The notes under the pieces: generated by a model
Database searches by the model: none
What the model saw: the letters and a program-made list of their open reading frames with translations, nothing else
Told to the model about the DNA's origin: nothing
Position numbers and translations under genes: made by a program
Shown: positions 15,633-23,890 of the stretch, one piece after another
Layout of the letters: each line of letters begins with the position of its first letter
Position numbering within the stretch: position 1 is the first letter of the stretch
From: a virus
Virus record (IMG/VR): IMGVR_UViG_3300017735_000002
Length of the DNA: 64,000 bases
Strand: one strand, 5' to 3'

Positions 15633-15640
15633 TATAAATA
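15633..15640 (+). promoter_or_regulatory. late promoter TATAAATA driving the curli module
   Basis: Exact T4 late consensus right after terminator, 5 nt before ATG 15646. Confidence 0.75.
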
Positions 15641-15942: not shown

Positions 15943-16199
15943 TGGACATTGCACAATTAATCTCCGATTTCGGATTTCCCATTGTGATGGCAGTAGGACT
16001 CGGTTATTTCATATATTACATTTGGTGGTTTGTAGGTGAAAAACTAGAACCCGAAATTGAAAAAATGCACTTTCAATTAATTAAAGTAATAGACCAAACA
16101 AGAATGTTAGACCAAGACTTAATAAGACTACAACAAAAAGTAGATGTAGTTTTAGAGATGAAAGAGAATGCCAAAAAGGAAGAGGTGAAAAAGAAATGA
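15942..16199 (+). CDS. small membrane protein, probable paralog of upstream ORF
   Basis: DFGFPIVMAVGLGYFIYYIW then coiled tail. Confidence 0.75.
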   Translation: MDIAQLISDFGFPIVMAVGLGYFIYYIWWFVGEKLEPEIEKMHFQLIKVIDQTRMLDQDLIRLQQKVDVVLEMKENAKKEEVKKK

Positions 16200-16684
16200 A
16201 ATTATTACAAATCATATTCTTAGTTTCAGTATTCTGTATTAGCGAAAGCGTACAGGCTGATATAAAACATAAATTTAAAAACCCTAGTTTCAGTGGAATA
16301 GGCACAGCATCACATTACCTAACCGTTGAGAACCAAGAGTTTACAAGAAAAAAAGAAATAGAAGATGCACTTGAATCTGCTAGAAAGGCAGCTGAAAGGG
16401 CAGAAGACAATACAACCATGGCCAAATTTATTCGTAATTTAGAATCACGAATTTATGCTCAAATGGCAAAACAATTGGTTGAGTCTATGTTTTCGAATGA
16501 CGGTTCAGTTAGATTTGGTTCATTTAGTTTAGAGGGCAATGTTGTCACATATGAAGTAATGACTAACGAAGATGGTTCAGAATTTATACGAATGACAATT
16601 GTTGATTCCGATGGAACAGAAACAGTTATTGAGATACCAATCGGAACAGGAAACTTTGGACAAGACTCAGATGGAACTGGTTAA
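16196..16684 (+). CDS. csgF: curli assembly protein CsgF-like
   Basis: Signal peptide ..VQA, then HKFKNPSFSG; LESRIYAQMAKQL helix; precedes csgG. Confidence 0.85.
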   Translation: MKLLQIIFLVSVFCISESVQADIKHKFKNPSFSGIGTASHYLTVENQEFTRKKEIEDALESARKAAERAEDNTTMAKFIRNLESRIYAQMAKQLVESMFSNDGSVRFGSFSLEGNVVTYEVMTNEDGSEFIRMTIVDSDGTETVIEIPIGTGNFGQDSDGTG

Positions 16685-17636
16685 ATATTTACTCACCTGC
16701 GTACTTTTACTATCTGGATGTGCATCTGTTCCAAAGTGGTCAGACAACCCAGCAGATTGTGCCTATGAGACAGGAAGATTTGATGAGGGTTTCGGCAGAG
16801 ATGTTGTCACAGGTGTCGCAAAGGCATGGTCTAGAAATTACATATGTGTAGAAAATGCTACTGTAATTAATCTACCTTCACATTTAGAACTACTGAATTT
16901 GCCTAAGGCAAAAGAAAGACCTACTGTTGCAGTTTATAATTTTATAGATAAGACTGGTCAAAGAAAGGCAGAAGATAATCTCGCATCATTTTCTACTGCT
17001 GTGACACAAGGTGCAACCGAAATGGTTATTGATGCACTTAAAACGGCAGGTAAAGGAACATGGTTTAGAGTTGTTGAAAGACATGGCATAGACAACTTAG
17101 TAAGAGAGAGACAAATCATTCGTTCTGCTAGACAAGACTTTGCTAAACAACAAGGCGAAGACAAGTTTCAAAATTTACAACCCTTACTATTCGCAGGTAT
17201 GATAATAGAGGGTGGTATAATAGGTTATGATTCCAATTTATTAACTGGTGGTCGAGGCGCAAGGACACTAGGAATTGGAGTTAGTAGACAGTATCGTCAA
17301 GATGCTGTCACGGTTAGTATGAGAGCTGTTTCAGTTCTAACAGGTGAAGTATTATTGAATGTCCAAACAAGAAAGACTATCCTTTCTTATGGTTCAGGCG
17401 GCGATGTATTCCGATTCATTGAAGAAGGTACACAATTGCTAGAGTTCGAGGACGGAGTGGGTAATAATGAGTCAGTGACATATGCGGTACGAACAGCTAT
17501 TGAGGCTGCCGTACTGGAATTAATCTACCAAGGGCATGATAGGGGTTTTTGGAAAATAGAGGAAGGTCATAGACACCCACACAATAGTGATGGTGTAAAT
17601 GATTTACACTCAATAAAAGGAGAAGAAAATGAATAA
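16671..17636 (+). CDS. csgG: curli secretion channel CsgG
   Basis: Lipobox LSGC; VAVYNFIDKTGQRK, FRVVERHGIDNLVRERQIIRS, EGGIIGYDSN, LRAV-type MRAVSVLTGEVL; start moved to 16671. Confidence 0.93.
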   Translation: MELVKYLLTCVLLLSGCASVPKWSDNPADCAYETGRFDEGFGRDVVTGVAKAWSRNYICVENATVINLPSHLELLNLPKAKERPTVAVYNFIDKTGQRKAEDNLASFSTAVTQGATEMVIDALKTAGKGTWFRVVERHGIDNLVRERQIIRSARQDFAKQQGEDKFQNLQPLLFAGMIIEGGIIGYDSNLLTGGRGARTLGIGVSRQYRQDAVTVSMRAVSVLTGEVLLNVQTRKTILSYGSGGDVFRFIEEGTQLLEFEDGVGNNESVTYAVRTAIEAAVLELIYQGHDRGFWKIEEGHRHPHNSDGVNDLHSIKGEENE

Positions 17637-18363
17637 AATTTTAAGTATTTTATTACTAATGTCGACACCATTCGTTTTCGCAGCTGCAACTGATGATAAT
17701 GAGATTATGATAACACAAGTTGGTGATACTCTAAAATTATATGTTGACCAAGTTGGTTTTGGTAACAAAGTAGGACTAAACGACTTTTCAAGTGGTTCTG
17801 GTTCAAACATGACCATTACTGGTGTGACTTTGGATTTCAACATAGATATGATAGGTAACAAGAACTTGTTATTCGGACCTCTCGTTGCCGATACATCGAA
17901 CTACGCTATATCGATGACTGGTGATTCTAACGCTATTGACTGGAACATAGGTTCTACAGGTAGTTCAGATGATTCAGACATCAATTTCGCAATGACAGGC
18001 GATTCGAATACATTCGATATCGACCAAGGTGCTGTTGCAAGTGCAGAGAGATTAAATGCGGATTTAGTTCTCATTGGAAGTAGTAATGTTTTTGATATTG
18101 ATTGGGAATCAGATGATGTCACATGGAATTTCGATGTGACTGGTTCTAGTTCTAATTTCAATACATTGCAAAAAGATGGTTCACAAACACTTAATTTTGA
18201 TTTTACAGGAGACAGTGCTGATGTTGATATCACTCAGATATCAGGCACATGTGCAGCTTCTGGCGGAGGGTGTGCAACACCTAATGCAAATGTCAATCTT
18301 AATGTAAACAGTGACAATGCGATTATTCAGATTACACAAAAAGATTCCGGCAGCGATAGTTAG
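17629..18363 (+). CDS. curlin-like secreted beta-solenoid protein 1
   Basis: Signal peptide; repeated x-x-G-x-x-N turns (MIGNKN, MTGDSN x2, LIGSSN); ITQVGD/DQVG; C-terminal Cys pair. Confidence 0.75.
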   Translation: MNKILSILLLMSTPFVFAAATDDNEIMITQVGDTLKLYVDQVGFGNKVGLNDFSSGSGSNMTITGVTLDFNIDMIGNKNLLFGPLVADTSNYAISMTGDSNAIDWNIGSTGSSDDSDINFAMTGDSNTFDIDQGAVASAERLNADLVLIGSSNVFDIDWESDDVTWNFDVTGSSSNFNTLQKDGSQTLNFDFTGDSADVDITQISGTCAASGGGCATPNANVNLNVNSDNAIIQITQKDSGSDS

Positions 18364-19468
18364 TTTCTTTTTATTATTCGCTGGTGGGTTCAGCTGGGCT
18401 GAGCCCATTGGCGGTGTAATTGAATCTACAGGTGTCACATCTGTAAAAAGAGAGCAGGACAGAATTCTAACAGATGTCGGTACAGACATCAACATGTATG
18501 ATGAAGCAGAGACTGCCAATGGGCGTATGCTCATACAATTTTTAGATAATGAAAAATTGAGTTTAACAGAAAACTCACTCGTTTACATAGACGAGGCATA
18601 TTACGACCCCGACCCAAGTTTATCCAAAATGTCAATACGAATGGCACGAGGCACAGCACGATTCGCCTCGGGTGGTGGTTCAAGAATTAAAAAACAAAAT
18701 GTAGATGTATCTACTCCTACAGCCAATATCACAATGAGAGGGACAGATTTTACAACCACCATTGATGAGTTGGGAAGGACTATGGTAATCTTACTTCCGG
18801 ATGAAGATACAGGTGAATCATCTGGAGAAATACTAGTTTATAATGACGGTGGTGAAGTTGTTTTAAATCAACCATATCAGGCAACTACTGTTGCATCGTT
18901 TGATTCATCACCAACTACAGCAGTCACGGTTCAAGGTATTACACCGAGTCTGATTGACAACATGTTCATCGTAAATCCGCCTTCGGAAATACGAAATGCG
19001 ATGGAAGAATCCTATCAAGATGAAAACTATGATGACCAAGGTCTATTAGATGTAGACTTCTTAGAGTTCAATGAACTTGAGGGAGATGCTTTGGCCGATA
19101 CGACTGAAGATTTATCATTTTCAGAGTTGGACATAGATTATTTGGATGTGGATTTTTTACAAGACTTATTAGATGTTATAGAAGAATTAGAGAGAACCAC
19201 GGTATCGTTAGGTTCCAAAAGTAGTTCGGGTACTGAATTAGCTGGGTTTGCACTTAAAGGTGCCTCACAAGGTTTCAACAAAGATTCTCAGTTTAATGTT
19301 TTCGAACAAGACGGAGACTTAGTTTTCTTTCGTGATGTCCAAGGAGTCATAAATATAATTATAACAAGTGGTGGTTCAGGTATTATAGATGCCGAAGTTC
19401 CAGGATACTCAGGTGTCATGACATTTGGAGATGGAGATGGAATTACAATTGTTATACGACAAGATTAA
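18317..19468 (+). CDS. FecR-domain secreted/periplasmic protein
   Basis: Signal peptide ..FSWA; TANGRMLIQFLD, STPTANITMRGTDF FecR pattern; acidic linker; start moved to ATG 18317. Confidence 0.8.
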   Translation: MRLFRLHKKIPAAIVSFFLLFAGGFSWAEPIGGVIESTGVTSVKREQDRILTDVGTDINMYDEAETANGRMLIQFLDNEKLSLTENSLVYIDEAYYDPDPSLSKMSIRMARGTARFASGGGSRIKKQNVDVSTPTANITMRGTDFTTTIDELGRTMVILLPDEDTGESSGEILVYNDGGEVVLNQPYQATTVASFDSSPTTAVTVQGITPSLIDNMFIVNPPSEIRNAMEESYQDENYDDQGLLDVDFLEFNELEGDALADTTEDLSFSELDIDYLDVDFLQDLLDVIEELERTTVSLGSKSSSGTELAGFALKGASQGFNKDSQFNVFEQDGDLVFFRDVQGVINIIITSGGSGIIDAEVPGYSGVMTFGDGDGITIVIRQD

Positions 19469-19634: not shown

Positions 19635-20389
19635 ACAAATTAAAAAATAAATTTTACAAATACTGGATACTACCATGGGGTGCTTGTTATCTCATGGTAT
19701 TTCCTGTATACGCTGATGACAATGTTATATCTATTGAACAAAGCGGAGATAATTTTGAACTAGGTATAGAACAAATTGGTTTCGATAATGAAATTAAAAT
19801 GTTAGATGCTAATTCATATATTAATGCTTCTAGTCTAGGTGTGTATATGGTTCAATACAACATACACAATACATCATCAAGTTATACTTATCCCAACTCA
19901 ATTGTATTTGATGAGGTTAGTGGTACTGGTAACAAAATGAAACTTGGCCAAGGCATTACTTGGGATTCACTAGACTCCGAAACAAATTTAGATTGGAGTC
20001 ATGATGGTAGTGAAGGTGGCGGACACGAGATAGACATTACAATGTATGGCGACTATAACAAATTAGCAGTTCAACAAACAAATCAACATAATGCATGGGA
20101 TGGTCATAACTTTGATTTGCATTTAGCAGGTGACCATAACGAAGTTCAAATCAAACAACAAGGCAATGGTGTAAAAACTACAAACTTAACAATCTACAAT
20201 GATTATAACGATGTGTATGTCCGTCAGAAAGGAACTAGTGCAAATCACACTGCAAATATAACTCTTGATGGTTTATATGGAACAGACTTAACATTATTAC
20301 AATTTGGTACTAGTGGTACTCAGTCTTATACTATATCAGTCGATTGCATGACAGTCGGTGGTTGTAGTACATCGGTGACCCAACAATGA
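19619..20389 (+). CDS. curlin-like secreted beta-solenoid protein 2
   Basis: Signal-like N-terminus ..VYA; IEQSGD, IEQIG, MYGDYN, LAGDHN, KQQG, RQKG repeats; C-terminal Cys pair. Confidence 0.75.
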   Translation: MVDFLNKLKNKFYKYWILPWGACYLMVFPVYADDNVISIEQSGDNFELGIEQIGFDNEIKMLDANSYINASSLGVYMVQYNIHNTSSSYTYPNSIVFDEVSGTGNKMKLGQGITWDSLDSETNLDWSHDGSEGGGHEIDITMYGDYNKLAVQQTNQHNAWDGHNFDLHLAGDHNEVQIKQQGNGVKTTNLTIYNDYNDVYVRQKGTSANHTANITLDGLYGTDLTLLQFGTSGTQSYTISVDCMTVGGCSTSVTQQ

Positions 20390-20643
20390 GTGAATGTCCA
20401 CCTGAGTTTTACGAGTGTCTCACTGAAGAAGAGTATGACGACATATTAGAACTCTTTGAAGAGAACGATATGGTCATGCCTGAATCTTTGGGTGATGTAG
20501 AAGCTGCATCTGATTTCGTTTGGCAAGTTCTCTTCCTAACACCAATAGAACTTATTTACATAGGTTTTACAATGACTGTTCTCGCTACTTATGGACTGTC
20601 TATATACTATATCTATAAACGAATACAGAAGAAATTCTCATGA
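20386..20643 (+). CDS. small membrane protein, acidic N-terminus
   Basis: ATGA overlap; C-terminal TM LIYIGFTMTVLATYGLSIYYI. Confidence 0.7.
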   Translation: MSECPPEFYECLTEEEYDDILELFEENDMVMPESLGDVEAASDFVWQVLFLTPIELIYIGFTMTVLATYGLSIYYIYKRIQKKFS

Positions 20644-20741
20644 ACACAATCGACATGATACCGTATTCTTTTAAAAAAGACTTTATCTTAGTCTGTTCTT
20701 TAGGACTAAACATAGGTTTTATTATCGGTTTAATATTATGA
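20640..20741 (+). CDS. very small membrane protein (33 aa)
   Basis: ATGA overlaps at both ends; FILVCSLGLNIGFIIGLIL. Confidence 0.5.
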   Translation: MNTIDMIPYSFKKDFILVCSLGLNIGFIIGLIL

Positions 20742-20917
20742 ATGAAGCGAATCCATTTTCAAAAGATGCACGAGAAAGGACCATCGCAATGGTTAACGAA
20801 TATCGTAGAAAGAAAAAACAACAATGGTGGTCAAGTTTCTGGTCAACAGTTCTTGCAATATCACTCATTGGTGTTTGTCTATACATATTCTTTTTTGCGT
20901 GGCCCACAATTGAATAG
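20738..20917 (+). CDS. small membrane protein (59 aa)
   Basis: ATGA overlap; MNEANPFSKD...RRKKKQQWW + TM VLAISLIGVCLYIFFFAW; preferred over the track ORF 20742..20969. Confidence 0.6.
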   Translation: MNEANPFSKDARERTIAMVNEYRRKKKQQWWSSFWSTVLAISLIGVCLYIFFFAWPTIE

Positions 20918-20983
20918 TGCCACAAAACAGATACAGGAGATATCGACTACTCGAATGGAAAAAGGGTAACCTGATAGATATCT

Positions 20984-22822
20984 ATGTATAATTGGAAAAC
21001 TGTACTTATAACCATCGTTGCACTCGTGGGCATAAAGATATGGTCGCCTTATCTAATAGATAATGTTAGATGGTCTTACTTCGATGTTCTACATCAACAA
21101 AAAGAAAAAGTGATAGTAGATGACATACTACTGGTCAACATAGATGAAAAGGCAATAGAGAAGTACGGTCAATATCCTTTCCCTAGAGACATATACGCAG
21201 ATACATTATGGGAAACACATCACTCAAATACTCATGTATTCAATATACTATTCGCAGAAGAAGATAGATTCGGTGGTGATGAAGTCTTTGCAGAGGCACT
21301 AGAAAACAGATTAACGATATTATCATCAGCACCAACAATTCAAAAAGAATCAGGCAACGCACCATTTGTAAATACATCTGTATTCGGAGATGGTAATATA
21401 CAAGACCATGTATGGAACTTTTCAGGTTTAGTAAGTCCCCGAACCGAATTACAAAACTCAGCTTGGGGTATGGGCGTGACAGTTGCCACACCACCTGTGG
21501 CGAATACACCAAATTTTGACGGAACAAACAGAGCGATTCCGCTAGTCATCCAGGCAAATGGTCAATTATATCCAAGTTTAGGATTCGAAGTTCTCAGAGC
21601 ATACTATGACCAACCCAATTATCAAACTAGGGTAACTGCTGATGCAGGTATTGAATGGGTTAAAATGGGAAGAGACAAACCAATAGAGACCACATCAAGT
21701 GCAGACTTGATGATTTCGTATTGGAACGAATTCGAATCTATCTCATTTGCAGACTTGCAAGATTCTGATATAGAAGGAAAGATTCTAGTCTATGGACTAA
21801 CCGCTGAGGGGTTATCTATTCCAGTTTCAACCCCAATGGGTGTAATGTATCCTCACGAAGTTCAAGCACACCTAATCCAAACCGTTTCGTCAGGAGTTCA
21901 AATACATGTATCCGAGACTCTTGAAATGCTCGAGACTTTTCTTCTTCTGTTAGTCCTTCTAGGAATACTGGTATCGGTCTACAAACTTCCCACAGCCTTC
22001 TCGGCGATAGTCTCTGTAGGGTTCGTTTTACTTCAGGTGGGGTTAAGTCACTATTTGTGGTTTTACAATCTCGTTCTTTTCGATATCTTCTGGTCATCGT
22101 TAAGCTCCGTTGTTGTTTTCGGACACGCTTCTTTTAACCAATACTATACTACTTACCAACTCAAAGAACAAATTAAGAAGCAGTTCCAAAAGTATTTATC
22201 TCCTGACATGATTGAAGAACTACAAAAAGACCCAAGTAAACTTAGACTTGGCGGAGATAGAAGAGAGATGACTTTCATGTTTATGGACATAATCGGATTC
22301 ACTCCCATAAGCGAACACTATATGCAGAAAGATGATCCAGAAGGTTTAGTAGAACTCATTAATAAGTTTTTAGATATGCAAACTAAAATCATACTAAATA
22401 ATAGTGGAACCATAGATAAGTATATGGGGGATTGCATAATGAGTTTTTGGAATGCACCACTTGATTGTGAAAACCACGCAGACCTTGCCGTAAAATCAGC
22501 ACTAGAAGTCCTAGATGCAACAAAGGAATTAAATGAAGAACTTAAACCTCTTAACCTGCCTCCTATTAATGTGGGCATCGGTATCAGTTCAGGCGAATGT
22601 ATTGTCGGAAACATGGGTTCCGAACTTAGATTTGACTATTCCGTCATCGGAGATGCCGTCAACTTGGGCGCTAGACTCGAAGGCCAAACAAGAAATTATA
22701 ATGGGGTGGACTTGTTGTTATCAGAAAGAACTTATCAACTATGTCCAGACAGAGCATTCACTAGAGTTGATAGAATTACAGTTAAAGGAAAATCAGAACA
22801 AGTCACAATTTACACTATCTGA
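20984..22822 (+). CDS. CHASE2-domain class III adenylate cyclase
   Basis: CHASE2 (LLVNIDEKAIEKYGQYPFPRD, GVMYPHEVQA), TM helices, cyclase motifs FMDIIGFT, DKYMGD, RFDYSVIGDAVNLGARLE; K and D residues indicate ATP specificity. Confidence 0.92.
   Translation: MYNWKTVLITIVALVGIKIWSPYLIDNVRWSYFDVLHQQKEKVIVDDILLVNIDEKAIEKYGQYPFPRDIYADTLWETHHSNTHVFNILFAEEDRFGGDEVFAEALENRLTILSSAPTIQKESGNAPFVNTSVFGDGNIQDHVWNFSGLVSPRTELQNSAWGMGVTVATPPVANTPNFDGTNRAIPLVIQANGQLYPSLGFEVLRAYYDQPNYQTRVTADAGIEWVKMGRDKPIETTSSADLMISYWNEFESISFADLQDSDIEGKILVYGLTAEGLSIPVSTPMGVMYPHEVQAHLIQTVSSGVQIHVSETLEMLETFLLLLVLLGILVSVYKLPTAFSAIVSVGFVLLQVGLSHYLWFYNLVLFDIFWSSLSSVVVFGHASFNQYYTTYQLKEQIKKQFQKYLSPDMIEELQKDPSKLRLGGDRREMTFMFMDIIGFTPISEHYMQKDDPEGLVELINKFLDMQTKIILNNSGTIDKYMGDCIMSFWNAPLDCENHADLAVKSALEVLDATKELNEELKPLNLPPINVGIGISSGECIVGNMGSELRFDYSVIGDAVNLGARLEGQTRNYNGVDLLLSERTYQLCPDRAFTRVDRITVKGKSEQVTIYTI
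21816..22097 (-). CDS. possible nested antisense ORF (93 aa)
   Basis: GGAG 7 nt upstream of ATG on minus strand; wholly inside cyclase gene; no recognisable family. Confidence 0.25.
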   Translation of the reverse strand: MTRRYRKERDCKTTNSDLTPPEVKRTLQRLSPRRLWEVCRPIPVFLEGLTEEEKSRAFQESRIHVFELLTKRFGLGVLELREDTLHPLGLKLE

Positions 22823-23126
22823 CCCAATCACAACTAAGCAGTGGATTACATTTACCACACTACAACTTGCAGATATCTATACAACTTATCGTGGACTTAA
22901 ATACAATTGTGTTTATGAAATAAATCCAATTGTTGGTGAACAACCATCAGTACCACAAATGTTTCTTGTTAAAACACTTGTTCTCATACCTGCAATCAAT
23001 TCTGATATAGAACGACAGACTCTAGAACCAAAAACTATGAATAATATAAATCTTTTAATGGCATTAGTTGTAGGCAACAACTACAATGTATGGCACAGAG
23101 CAGAAAAAAACTGTGGAAGAAGATGA
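22533..23126 (+). CDS. secreted/membrane protein overprinted on cyclase 3' end (DUF5658-like C-terminus)
   Basis: AAGGA RBS; signal peptide MKNLNLLTCLLLMWASVSVQA; C-domain LQLADIYTTYRGL..EINPIV. Confidence 0.7.
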   Translation: MKNLNLLTCLLLMWASVSVQANVLSETWVPNLDLTIPSSEMPSTWALDSKAKQEIIMGWTCCYQKELINYVQTEHSLELIELQLKENQNKSQFTLSDPITTKQWITFTTLQLADIYTTYRGLKYNCVYEINPIVGEQPSVPQMFLVKTLVLIPAINSDIERQTLEPKTMNNINLLMALVVGNNYNVWHRAEKNCGRR

Positions 23127-23890
23127 TAATAATAACTGGTACAAAAAAAGATAACAGAGTATCTTTTCTTGTATACAATGATAATTTTGAACTACAATTG
23201 GTCAAACCCTACACTCCTGAATTAGATGACTTGTCAGTTGAAGGAATGAAATCAGGCAAAAACACCAGACCAACCTTTAGACCCTTTGGCATAACTTATG
23301 ATGAAGATAATATTTACATTGCAAATCATACTAAAATAGGTATCTACGATATCAATGATTACACATTCAAAGGTCTATTACCTATTACTAGTTTTTTTAA
23401 CACGCATCAAATATTAAAGAAAGACAATATCATGTATGTTGCGAATACACACGAAAACTCAATTGGTATACATAATTTAGATGACGGCAGTTCATTCTTT
23501 AAAGTTCTTCCTAAAAAATCTCATTGCAACAGTCTATTTTTTAAAGATGAGTTATACTATGTATTTCACAATAGAAATCTAAAACCATCTGAGTTTTATA
23601 GAGGAGATACTAAGATAAAGGAATTAGGAAGAAAATGTCATAACATAATTGTTGATGAACATTTCTATACTATTGATACAGGTGCCTATGAACTAGTCAT
23701 TGATGACGATAGATATTTCATTAATAAGGGTTTCTGTAGAGGTTTAGCAAAAAGAAATGGAAAACTTTTAGTTGGCAATAACGAAGGAGATGTTGCGTCT
23801 GTTTTTGTTTTTGATATAGAAAATAGAGTATTTGATAATCAAATAAATATAGAACACCTAGATAAAATTACAGATATAAAATGCATTTAG
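23123..23890 (+). CDS. beta-propeller-like protein
   Basis: Repeats PFGITYDEDNIYIAN, HQILKKDNIMYVAN, HCNSLFF, CRGLAKRNGKLLVG; ATGA overlap; start moved to 23123. Confidence 0.6.
   Translation: MIIITGTKKDNRVSFLVYNDNFELQLVKPYTPELDDLSVEGMKSGKNTRPTFRPFGITYDEDNIYIANHTKIGIYDINDYTFKGLLPITSFFNTHQILKKDNIMYVANTHENSIGIHNLDDGSSFFKVLPKKSHCNSLFFKDELYYVFHNRNLKPSEFYRGDTKIKELGRKCHNIIVDEHFYTIDTGAYELVIDDDRYFINKGFCRGLAKRNGKLLVGNNEGDVASVFVFDIENRVFDNQINIEHLDKITDIKCI

Follow-up and report, generated by a model that had tools for sequence, protein, structure and literature searches.

Evidence for conserved dual coding across the catalytic core of a phage CHASE2-cyclase gene

Can the catalytic core of a phage cyclase also encode the N terminus of a second, exported protein? 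The question is raised by a viral DNA of 64,000 nucleotides (nt), IMG/VR record IMGVR_UViG_3300017735_000002, which we refer to in full as the window. On its plus strand, a gene at 20984..22822 encodes a class III adenylate/guanylate cyclase of 612 amino acids (aa) with a CHASE2 sensor. Its 3' end is overlapped by an open reading frame (ORF) at 22533..23126, also on the plus strand. The overlap is 290 nt, or 96 codons, and the ORF is in the +1 frame relative to the cyclase, which is the older frame of the two. The 197-aa ORF product has a signal-peptide-like N terminus, an overprinted N-terminal region, and a DUF5658-like helical core. An initial annotation of the window, made from the sequence alone, proposed that this arrangement is true dual coding, and suggested that homologues be examined for an open +1 frame, reduced synonymous variation in the cyclase gene, and use of the start at 22533. 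It described the ORF as starting inside the cyclase gene with AAGGA 5 nt before the ATG, and both are present as described. The Shine-Dalgarno (SD)-like AAGGA (22523..22527, plus strand) is formed by the cyclase codons AAG-GAA (Lys-Glu), and a TAA stop codon lies immediately 5' of the ATG. The N terminus in the +1 frame, MKNLNLLTCLLLMWASVSVQA (22533..22595, plus strand), is read from cyclase codons 517 to 538, where the same bases encode LNEELKPLNLPPINVGIGISSGE in the cyclase. Also as annotated, the +1 frame stays open through the cyclase motifs GNMGS..DYSVIGDAVNLGARLE up to the cyclase stop codon at 22820-22822.

The host gene was assigned with Pfam, in which CHASE2 (103 bits) and Guanylate_cyc (66.5 bits) both matched above their cut-offs. 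Among 30 homologues, there is no variation at the catalytic residues D435, D483, N560, and R564. Together, the profile scores, the catalytic Asp pair, and the Asn/Arg pair place the protein among class III cyclases with a CHASE2 sensor. N560 and R564, the transition-state residues, fall inside the candidate dual-coding stretch. NCBIfam held no informative family for either protein, and the cyclase gave only a far subthreshold match to TIGR03903 (10.7 bits; cut-off, 705.75).

We compared the locus with 16 viral loci, 80 metagenome loci, and 2 contigs of metagenome-assembled genomes (MAGs). The query for the 16 viral loci was only the nonoverlapping part of the ORF, so that this sample is unbiased for the overlap. 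At every locus with intact upstream sequence, a CHASE2-cyclase gene precedes the small gene, and the small gene is in the cyclase +1 frame. At these loci that frame is open for 115 to 157 codons before an invariant YTTYRGL, reaching at least the position of the window ATG. Among them are 14 of the viral loci from the unbiased sample. The overprinted gene is a single open frame of 196 to 208 aa in 73 distinct homologous loci. The sole exception is locus L096 (Ga0123366_1175699, 368-494), which has one nonsense codon just past the cyclase stop, where its closest relative, L094, has a Glu codon. This interruption could reflect a pseudogene, a sequencing error, or readthrough.

The distribution of stop codons was specific to the overlap and to the +1 frame. 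The upstream parts of 46 distinct cyclase genes contain 8.4 +1-frame stops per 100 codons, and there are none within the overlap, so that the frame is open across its whole length in every gene. The +2 frame of the same genes has 6 to 14 stops in the overlap stretch. The window cyclase alone has 46 +1-frame stops across its upstream 515 codons. Cyclases of the overlap-type clade diverge down to 47% identity, and the second frame is therefore open in diverged homologues beyond what chance would give, as judged by the following shuffles. Within each gene, codons were shuffled synonymously with the protein and the codon usage held fixed. For the window, 2000 shuffles gave a mean of 8.4 +1-frame stops in the 96 codons and a minimum of 2, and none had an open frame (0/2000). 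Across the homologous genes, 5 to 11 stops were expected, and the probability of an open frame ranged from 0 to 0.0015 per gene. In the two least constrained pieces of the overlap, which amount to 40 codons, approximately 4 stops were expected and zero were found in 46/46 genes.

Related genes provide a natural control. We found 78 phage CHASE2-cyclases without a downstream DUF5658-like gene, and their last 96 codons contain 2 to 9 +1-frame stops, never zero. A tree built from 100 cyclases separates the overlap-type genes from the rest at a branch that has 100% support in the Shimodaira-Hasegawa-like approximate likelihood ratio test (SH-aLRT), a topology compatible with a single origin. Comparing the conservation of the +1 and +2 translations (identities of 0.68 versus 0.65) was nondiscriminating, because fixed wobble positions raise both values.

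Synonymous variation in the cyclase gene points to the same stretch. We measured it as uncorrected synonymous differences (pS) by the Nei-Gojobori method. In the CHASE2 and upstream cyclase regions pS is 0.67 to 0.69. It falls to 0.33 in the overlap core, cyclase codons 539 to 594, compared with 0.69 just upstream, which is the strong reduction that dual coding predicts for the older gene. This most constrained part (22598..22765, plus strand) encodes approximately residues 23 to 78 of the ORF. The reduction is milder at its two ends, with a pS of 0.57 in the signal-peptide codons and 0.61 in the last 17 cyclase codons. The synonymous-codon entropy ratio agrees, being 0.29 to 0.44 in the core and approximately 0.75 elsewhere. 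We also counted fixed codons in a 39-gene codon alignment, restricted to columns whose amino acid is both conserved and degenerate. One codon accounts for at least 90% of the genes in 18/38 such columns of the overlap core, compared with 3/60 just upstream and 1/48 in CHASE2.

The fixed codons are informative in themselves. They are often rare ones, and many end in C or G (AAC, GAC, GTC, CTC, GGG, and TTG). The initial annotation had pointed to C-ending cyclase codons in the window, and this extends to the family, with AAC, GAC, GTC (twice), and CTC fixed in at least 90% of the 39 homologues. The clearest example is a Cys-Cys pair in the +1 frame, encoded by TGT TGT (22713..22718, plus strand) where the cyclase Leu/Val-Leu-Leu is written xTG-TTG-T... 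Cyclase codon 577 is TTG or GTG in 39/39 genes, and codon 578 (Leu) is TTG in 39/39, even though TTG makes up 13% of the Leu codons gene-wide. These two codons conserve Cys-Cys in the +1 frame. Judged from these alignments, both frames are under selection.

A second, weaker dip in synonymous variation was seen elsewhere in the cyclase gene. It covers codons ~280 to 384 in the transmembrane region (21816-22136), with an entropy ratio of 0.45 to 0.49, a pS of 0.52, and fixed codons in 5/19 conserved columns. It coincides with a 93-aa antisense ORF (21816..22097), whose frame is open in 27/39 homologues (shuffle P = 0.016). Similar antisense frames occur in the control cyclases, so the antisense frame and the dip may be compositional.

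We next consider the start of the second frame. In the aligned genes of all clades, the start Met is conserved either at the window column or 3 codons upstream. The ATG is built from cyclase AAT-GAA or GAT-GAA. An SD-like motif (AAGGA, GGAG, or GAGG) precedes the conserved ATG by 5 to 7 nt in 35 of 47 distinct homologous contexts, and it is made from different cyclase codons in different clades (AAG-GAA, ACG-GAG, or GAG-GCx). In the Lys column of AAGGA, 23/27 Lys codons are AAG, although AAA is the more common Lys codon gene-wide. The start at 22533 thus has counterparts across the family, at or within 3 codons and usually with a ribosome-binding site. This supports, but is distinct from, translation from 22533, which we infer.

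Would the product be exported? The initial annotation had read a Sec signal at the N terminus, and by rule of thumb the layout is of the Sec type: MK-N, then LNLLTCLLLMWASVSV, then V-Q-A, with small residues at -3 and -1, followed by N. The N terminus has a 19-residue Kyte-Doolittle mean of 1.75 and is the only segment of the protein to reach 1.6 or more. Clades differ in sequence after the Met, yet they always have a hydrophobic stretch with a small-x-small end (VQA, VHA, GSA, ASA, or VQG). Because cyclase wobble positions fall on second codon positions in the +1 frame, silent changes can set the hydrophobicity of the second product. The +1 hydrophobic peak lies above the synonymous-shuffle mean in 46/46 genes, with P ≤ 0.05 in 29 of them. 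A lipoprotein reading, based on a possible lipobox LLTC, was rejected since the Cys of the hydrophobic region is replaced in homologues.

Relatives without the overlap also bear on export. Eleven relatives of 160 to 166 aa have an unrelated N terminus that is a textbook signal peptide. On the one long contig examined (L099:4001-6425), such a gene lies directly upstream of a CHASE2-cyclase gene, without overlap, in the same CsgF-CsgG-FecR cluster, and the last 96 codons of this cyclase include 5 +1-frame stops. In both architectures the core domain stands behind an export signal and adjoins a cyclase. Since the nonoverlapping relatives carry the same core behind their own classical signal peptide, the overprinted protein is probably exported as well, and Sec export and cleavage appear likely from the sequence. 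The annotated Sec signal therefore finds backing in the family, both in its hydrophobicity beyond shuffles and in these relatives. Cores of the proteins with their own signal peptide (P0011, P0020, and P0025 among them) are 88 to 99% identical to overlap-type cores, so the two architectures have exchanged the core domain. This implies repeated module exchange between phages at the domain boundary.

Three other explanations were weighed against this evidence. The open +1 frame might be a compositional or phylogenetic artefact, produced by cyclase conservation and codon bias or inherited without selection. The cyclase protein is indeed well conserved in the overlap core (mean identity, 83%), all overlap-type genes belong to one clade, and long alternative frames are frequent in this family. 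However, shuffles that keep the protein and codon usage are almost never open, equally conserved cyclases without the downstream gene have 2 to 9 stops, and rare codons are fixed in the overlap. The background pS of ~0.7 also means that synonymous turnover has been ample. We regard such an artefact as extremely improbable. The continuity of the +1 frame from inside the cyclase into the downstream domain could also suggest programmed +1 ribosomal frameshifting, by which a fraction of ribosomes would make a cyclase-DUF5658 fusion, with the open frame kept for that purpose. Phages are known to make frameshift fusions, as with tail assembly chaperones and T7 gene 10B. However, the open stretch begins exactly where a conserved ATG stands, together with an SD-like motif and a hydrophobic segment resembling a signal, and in the window type a stop codon directly precedes the ATG. 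All clades share nearly the same starting point of the open stretch, which is not a slippery site, and an Rfam search of 22300-23300 found no element. A fusion would also place in the cytoplasm a Cys-pair domain that elsewhere has its own signal peptide. Frameshifting is therefore a very improbable explanation.

The third explanation, a later start, is also improbable but less so than the other two. Here the small gene would start near the cyclase end (ATG at 22701 or TTG at 22767), the upstream frame would be untranslated, and the product would be cytoplasmic or membrane peripheral without a signal peptide. Most database entries are 118 to 119 aa and start 56 nt inside the cyclase gene. Were the core helices transmembrane, an N-in topology without a signal peptide would, by our reasoning, still put both conserved Cys residues outside. 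However, the core is insufficiently hydrophobic for transmembrane helices, and the start codon of the 119-aa form is not conserved, since codon 22767 is TTG in 23/39 genes and TCG in the other 16. Prodigal permits a same-strand overlap of at most 60 nt. The 119-aa call overlaps the cyclase by 56 nt, so we interpret these calls as a gene-caller artefact. Within one 90% protein cluster, the same gene is called as 197 aa on short contigs and as 119 aa on long contigs. As for 22701, the initial annotation had cautioned that translation might start there. The caution stands insofar as an ATG is present at 22701 in 31/39 genes, with one at the neighboring codon in 26/39. However, this ATG is not universal, and four genes have none at either 22698 or 22701. 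A later start also leaves unexplained the 56 codons upstream of 22701, which are open in every homologue and constrained, as well as the conserved ATG with its SD-like motif, the hydrophobicity in excess of shuffles, and the signal peptide of the nonoverlapping homologues.

Several points nevertheless weigh against dual coding of an exported protein. Open alternative frames of at least 90 codons are common, and 59/78 control genes have one somewhere. An open frame in one sequence is weak evidence for that reason, and it is the conservation of position and frame that counts. The overlap-type cyclases are one clade, so their sequences are not independent, and the argument relies on synonymous sites that are near saturation outside the overlap. 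The n-region of the window signal contains a single Lys, the -3/-1 residues are imperfect in some homologues, and AlphaFold2 confidence is low for residues 1 to 48. The relatives with their own signal peptide lack the region of residues 22 to 96, so it is not required for core function everywhere. Finally, Met is frequent at or beside 22701, so a shorter internal product may also be made.

On balance, we give a probability of roughly 85% to dual coding, in which a 197-aa exported protein would be made from the internal start at 22533 and the overlap would be kept by selection on both frames. Comparison of homologues establishes, at the level of sequence, the open frame, the start, the synonymous constraint, and the hydrophobic N terminus, and the original proposal of true dual coding is thereby strengthened. 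Under dual coding, ribosomes on the operon mRNA would initiate at ATG 22533, which lies within the cyclase coding sequence and is served by AAGGA, and would read in the +1 frame across the cyclase catalytic core and past the cyclase stop to 23126. Residues 1 to 21 of the resulting 197-aa precursor would be a Sec-type signal peptide, cleaved after VQA, or possibly an uncleaved signal anchor. Residues 22 to 96 would be a newly overprinted region, partly disordered, with the conserved Cys-Cys. Residues ~97 to 197 would form a conserved three-helix DUF5658-like core in the periplasm, with the Cys pair C126/C194. Most likely, the small gene was first positioned behind the cyclase and then acquired a start farther 5', inside the cyclase gene. 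Both frames would since have been under purifying selection, which kept the arrangement.

What is the conserved core? A DUF5658-like match (22857..22991, plus strand) lies inside the nonoverlapping part. The PF18902 score of this part is 25.2 bits, which equals the cut-off of 25.2 bits, and that of the whole ORF is 21.5 bits; the match covers only profile positions 2 to 48 of 82. Many homologues have a precomputed PF18902 match, and the last 101 residues have 66 relatives in marine metagenomes. AlphaFold2 predicted three confident helices at residues 101 to 193 (nt 22833-23111), with a predicted local distance difference test (pLDDT) score of 81 to 95 in 10-residue block means over residues 101 to 197. 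C126 is invariant among homologues, and C194 is invariant or nearly so. The two probably form a disulfide in the periplasm. Typical DUF5658 members are hydrophobic, unlike the core of the overprinted protein, which is below transmembrane-grade hydrophobicity on the Kyte-Doolittle scale. Searches with the AlphaFold2 model of the PDB (Foldseek), of 48,161 representatives (VIA-align), and of the ESM Atlas found only generic helical bundles (best Z, 6.7). A feature search of the ESM Atlas returned only unnamed viral clusters, with no functional lead.

The adjacency of the small gene to a cyclase gene in two gene orders suggests that its product works with periplasmic CHASE2 or FecR sensors, and a functional tie of this kind seems plausible. 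The overlap may also functionally lock the exported protein to the cyclase, as was proposed in the initial annotation. A more specific possibility, which we consider unlikely, is that residues 22 to 96 (SETW..LDLTIPS.EM.ST..LDSK..GWTCCY..) are a periplasmic module born de novo that acts together with the DUF5658-like core to bind the CHASE2 (or FecR) sensor of its own cyclase or to modulate it. Cofolding of the CHASE2 periplasmic domain (cyclase residues 23 to 312) with residues 22 to 197 of the small protein gave no verdict, neither for nor against binding. If the module reading were true, an enzyme gene would carry its own extracytoplasmic regulator in its second frame, and phage recombination could not separate the pair.

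Typical bacterial gene overlaps are 1 to 4 nt and, except in very small genomes, long dual coding on one strand is rare. In phiX174, gene E lies inside gene D and gene B lies inside gene A. The overlap described here is a new case of this known class, overprinted genes, which have been reviewed for small phages (PMC8227390). As in phiX174-type overprinting, the second gene is in an alternative frame of the same strand, its hydrophobic N-terminal segment comes largely from the wobble positions of the host gene, and synonymous variation of the older gene is reduced. However, the genome here is ~140 to 150 kb, as estimated from related contigs, so saving space is not an obvious pressure. Also, overprinting is confined to the 5' half of the younger gene, whose conserved domain falls outside the overlap. 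Overlap formation by a shift to an upstream start of the downstream gene has been described as mechanism b (Delaye et al. 2008, PMC2268670). Our case resembles it in that the conserved domain of the downstream gene is nonoverlapping and only an N-terminal extension lies inside the upstream gene. It differs in the length of the extension (96 codons), in the export signal that the extension would supply, and in its conservation throughout a deep clade.

The Rz/Rz1 spanin genes of phage lambda and its relatives, which occur in embedded, overlapped, and separated architectures (Kongari et al. 2018, PMC6139136), are the closest parallel in layout. There too, the signal sequence of an exported phage protein is in the +1 frame of a neighboring gene, and overlapped and nonoverlapping arrangements coexist. 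However, the host gene here is a CHASE2-cyclase rather than an i-spanin gene, the overlap crosses the catalytic core of an enzyme, and the putative exported protein has a DUF5658-like helical core and no conserved lipobox. Because of the host gene and the missing lipobox, the two proteins are not a spanin pair, and the parallel is an analogy only.

Thus, in a deep and abundant clade of marine myophages, the stretch that encodes the catalytic core of an enzyme also appears to have kept 96 codons for an exported protein. Nature supplies both a control, in the sister cyclases that lack the overlap, and an unfolded version, in the core behind its own signal peptide. This makes the locus a good system for studying the origin of overprinting, constraint shared by two frames, and a signal peptide built mostly from wobble positions. 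It also has a practical side: gene callers shorten members of this protein family to 119 aa, and the export signal is lost.

The phage setting was examined as well. A marine T4-like myophage, of the pelagimyophage type, is the source of the window, which carries, all on one strand, genes for a gp43-type DNA polymerase, a DnaB-like helicase, a clamp loader, an SbcC-like nuclease, and NrdA. The cyclase belongs to a curli/FecR/cyclase cluster with CsgF (16196-16684), CsgG (16599-17636), two curlin-repeat proteins, and a FecR-domain protein (18311-19468). Between the second curlin-like gene and the cyclase gene are small ORFs (20386-20969), for example, 20386..20643, which encodes 85 aa with a hydrophobic C terminus; these small ORFs had no family match. 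A T4-type late promoter motif, TATAAATA, lies at 15633, 5' of the curli cluster, and is the nearest such motif to the overlap. A promoter and terminator scan of 20400-23400 found nothing beyond shuffle expectation, and we therefore do not propose an internal promoter. On the sequence evidence above, this late curli/FecR/CHASE2-cyclase operon very probably contains a real dual-coding stretch. Downstream, in an ATGA junction (23123..23126, plus strand), the overprinted gene ends on a stop codon that overlaps a candidate start codon for the following gene, in frame with an ORF listed as 23090..23890. The junction suggests that the two genes are translationally coupled and that the true start of that ORF is later.

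A curli operon has been described for pelagimyophages (Zaragoza-Solas et al. 2020, PMC7029224) and for phage Melnitz (Buchholz et al. 2022, PMC9004378). Like ours, those clusters belong to marine T4-like phages and contain genes for CsgF, CsgG, and curlin-like proteins. However, neither PMC7029224 nor PMC9004378 names a cyclase or FecR, and CHASE2 is absent from PMC7029224. The cyclase and its overprinted partner are therefore additions to the described phage curli cluster, and a CHASE2-cyclase with a putative exported partner provides new parts for the unexplained curli operon of SAR11/OM43-type myophages. Our literature search found no paper that joins CHASE2, curli, and phage, and none that mentions DUF5658. 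Among isolate phages, a tblastn search of 50,697 phage records with the 197-aa ORF gave zero matches. Relatives of the phage CHASE2-cyclase are encoded in at least 597 IMG/VR stretches, so the enzyme is common but undescribed beside phage curli genes. The cyclase and overprinted pair also occurs in two bacterial MAGs of unrelated phyla, "Synechococcus sp. CPC35" (L097) and "Sphingobacteriales bacterium" (L098), and both contigs are probably phage contigs that were binned into MAGs.

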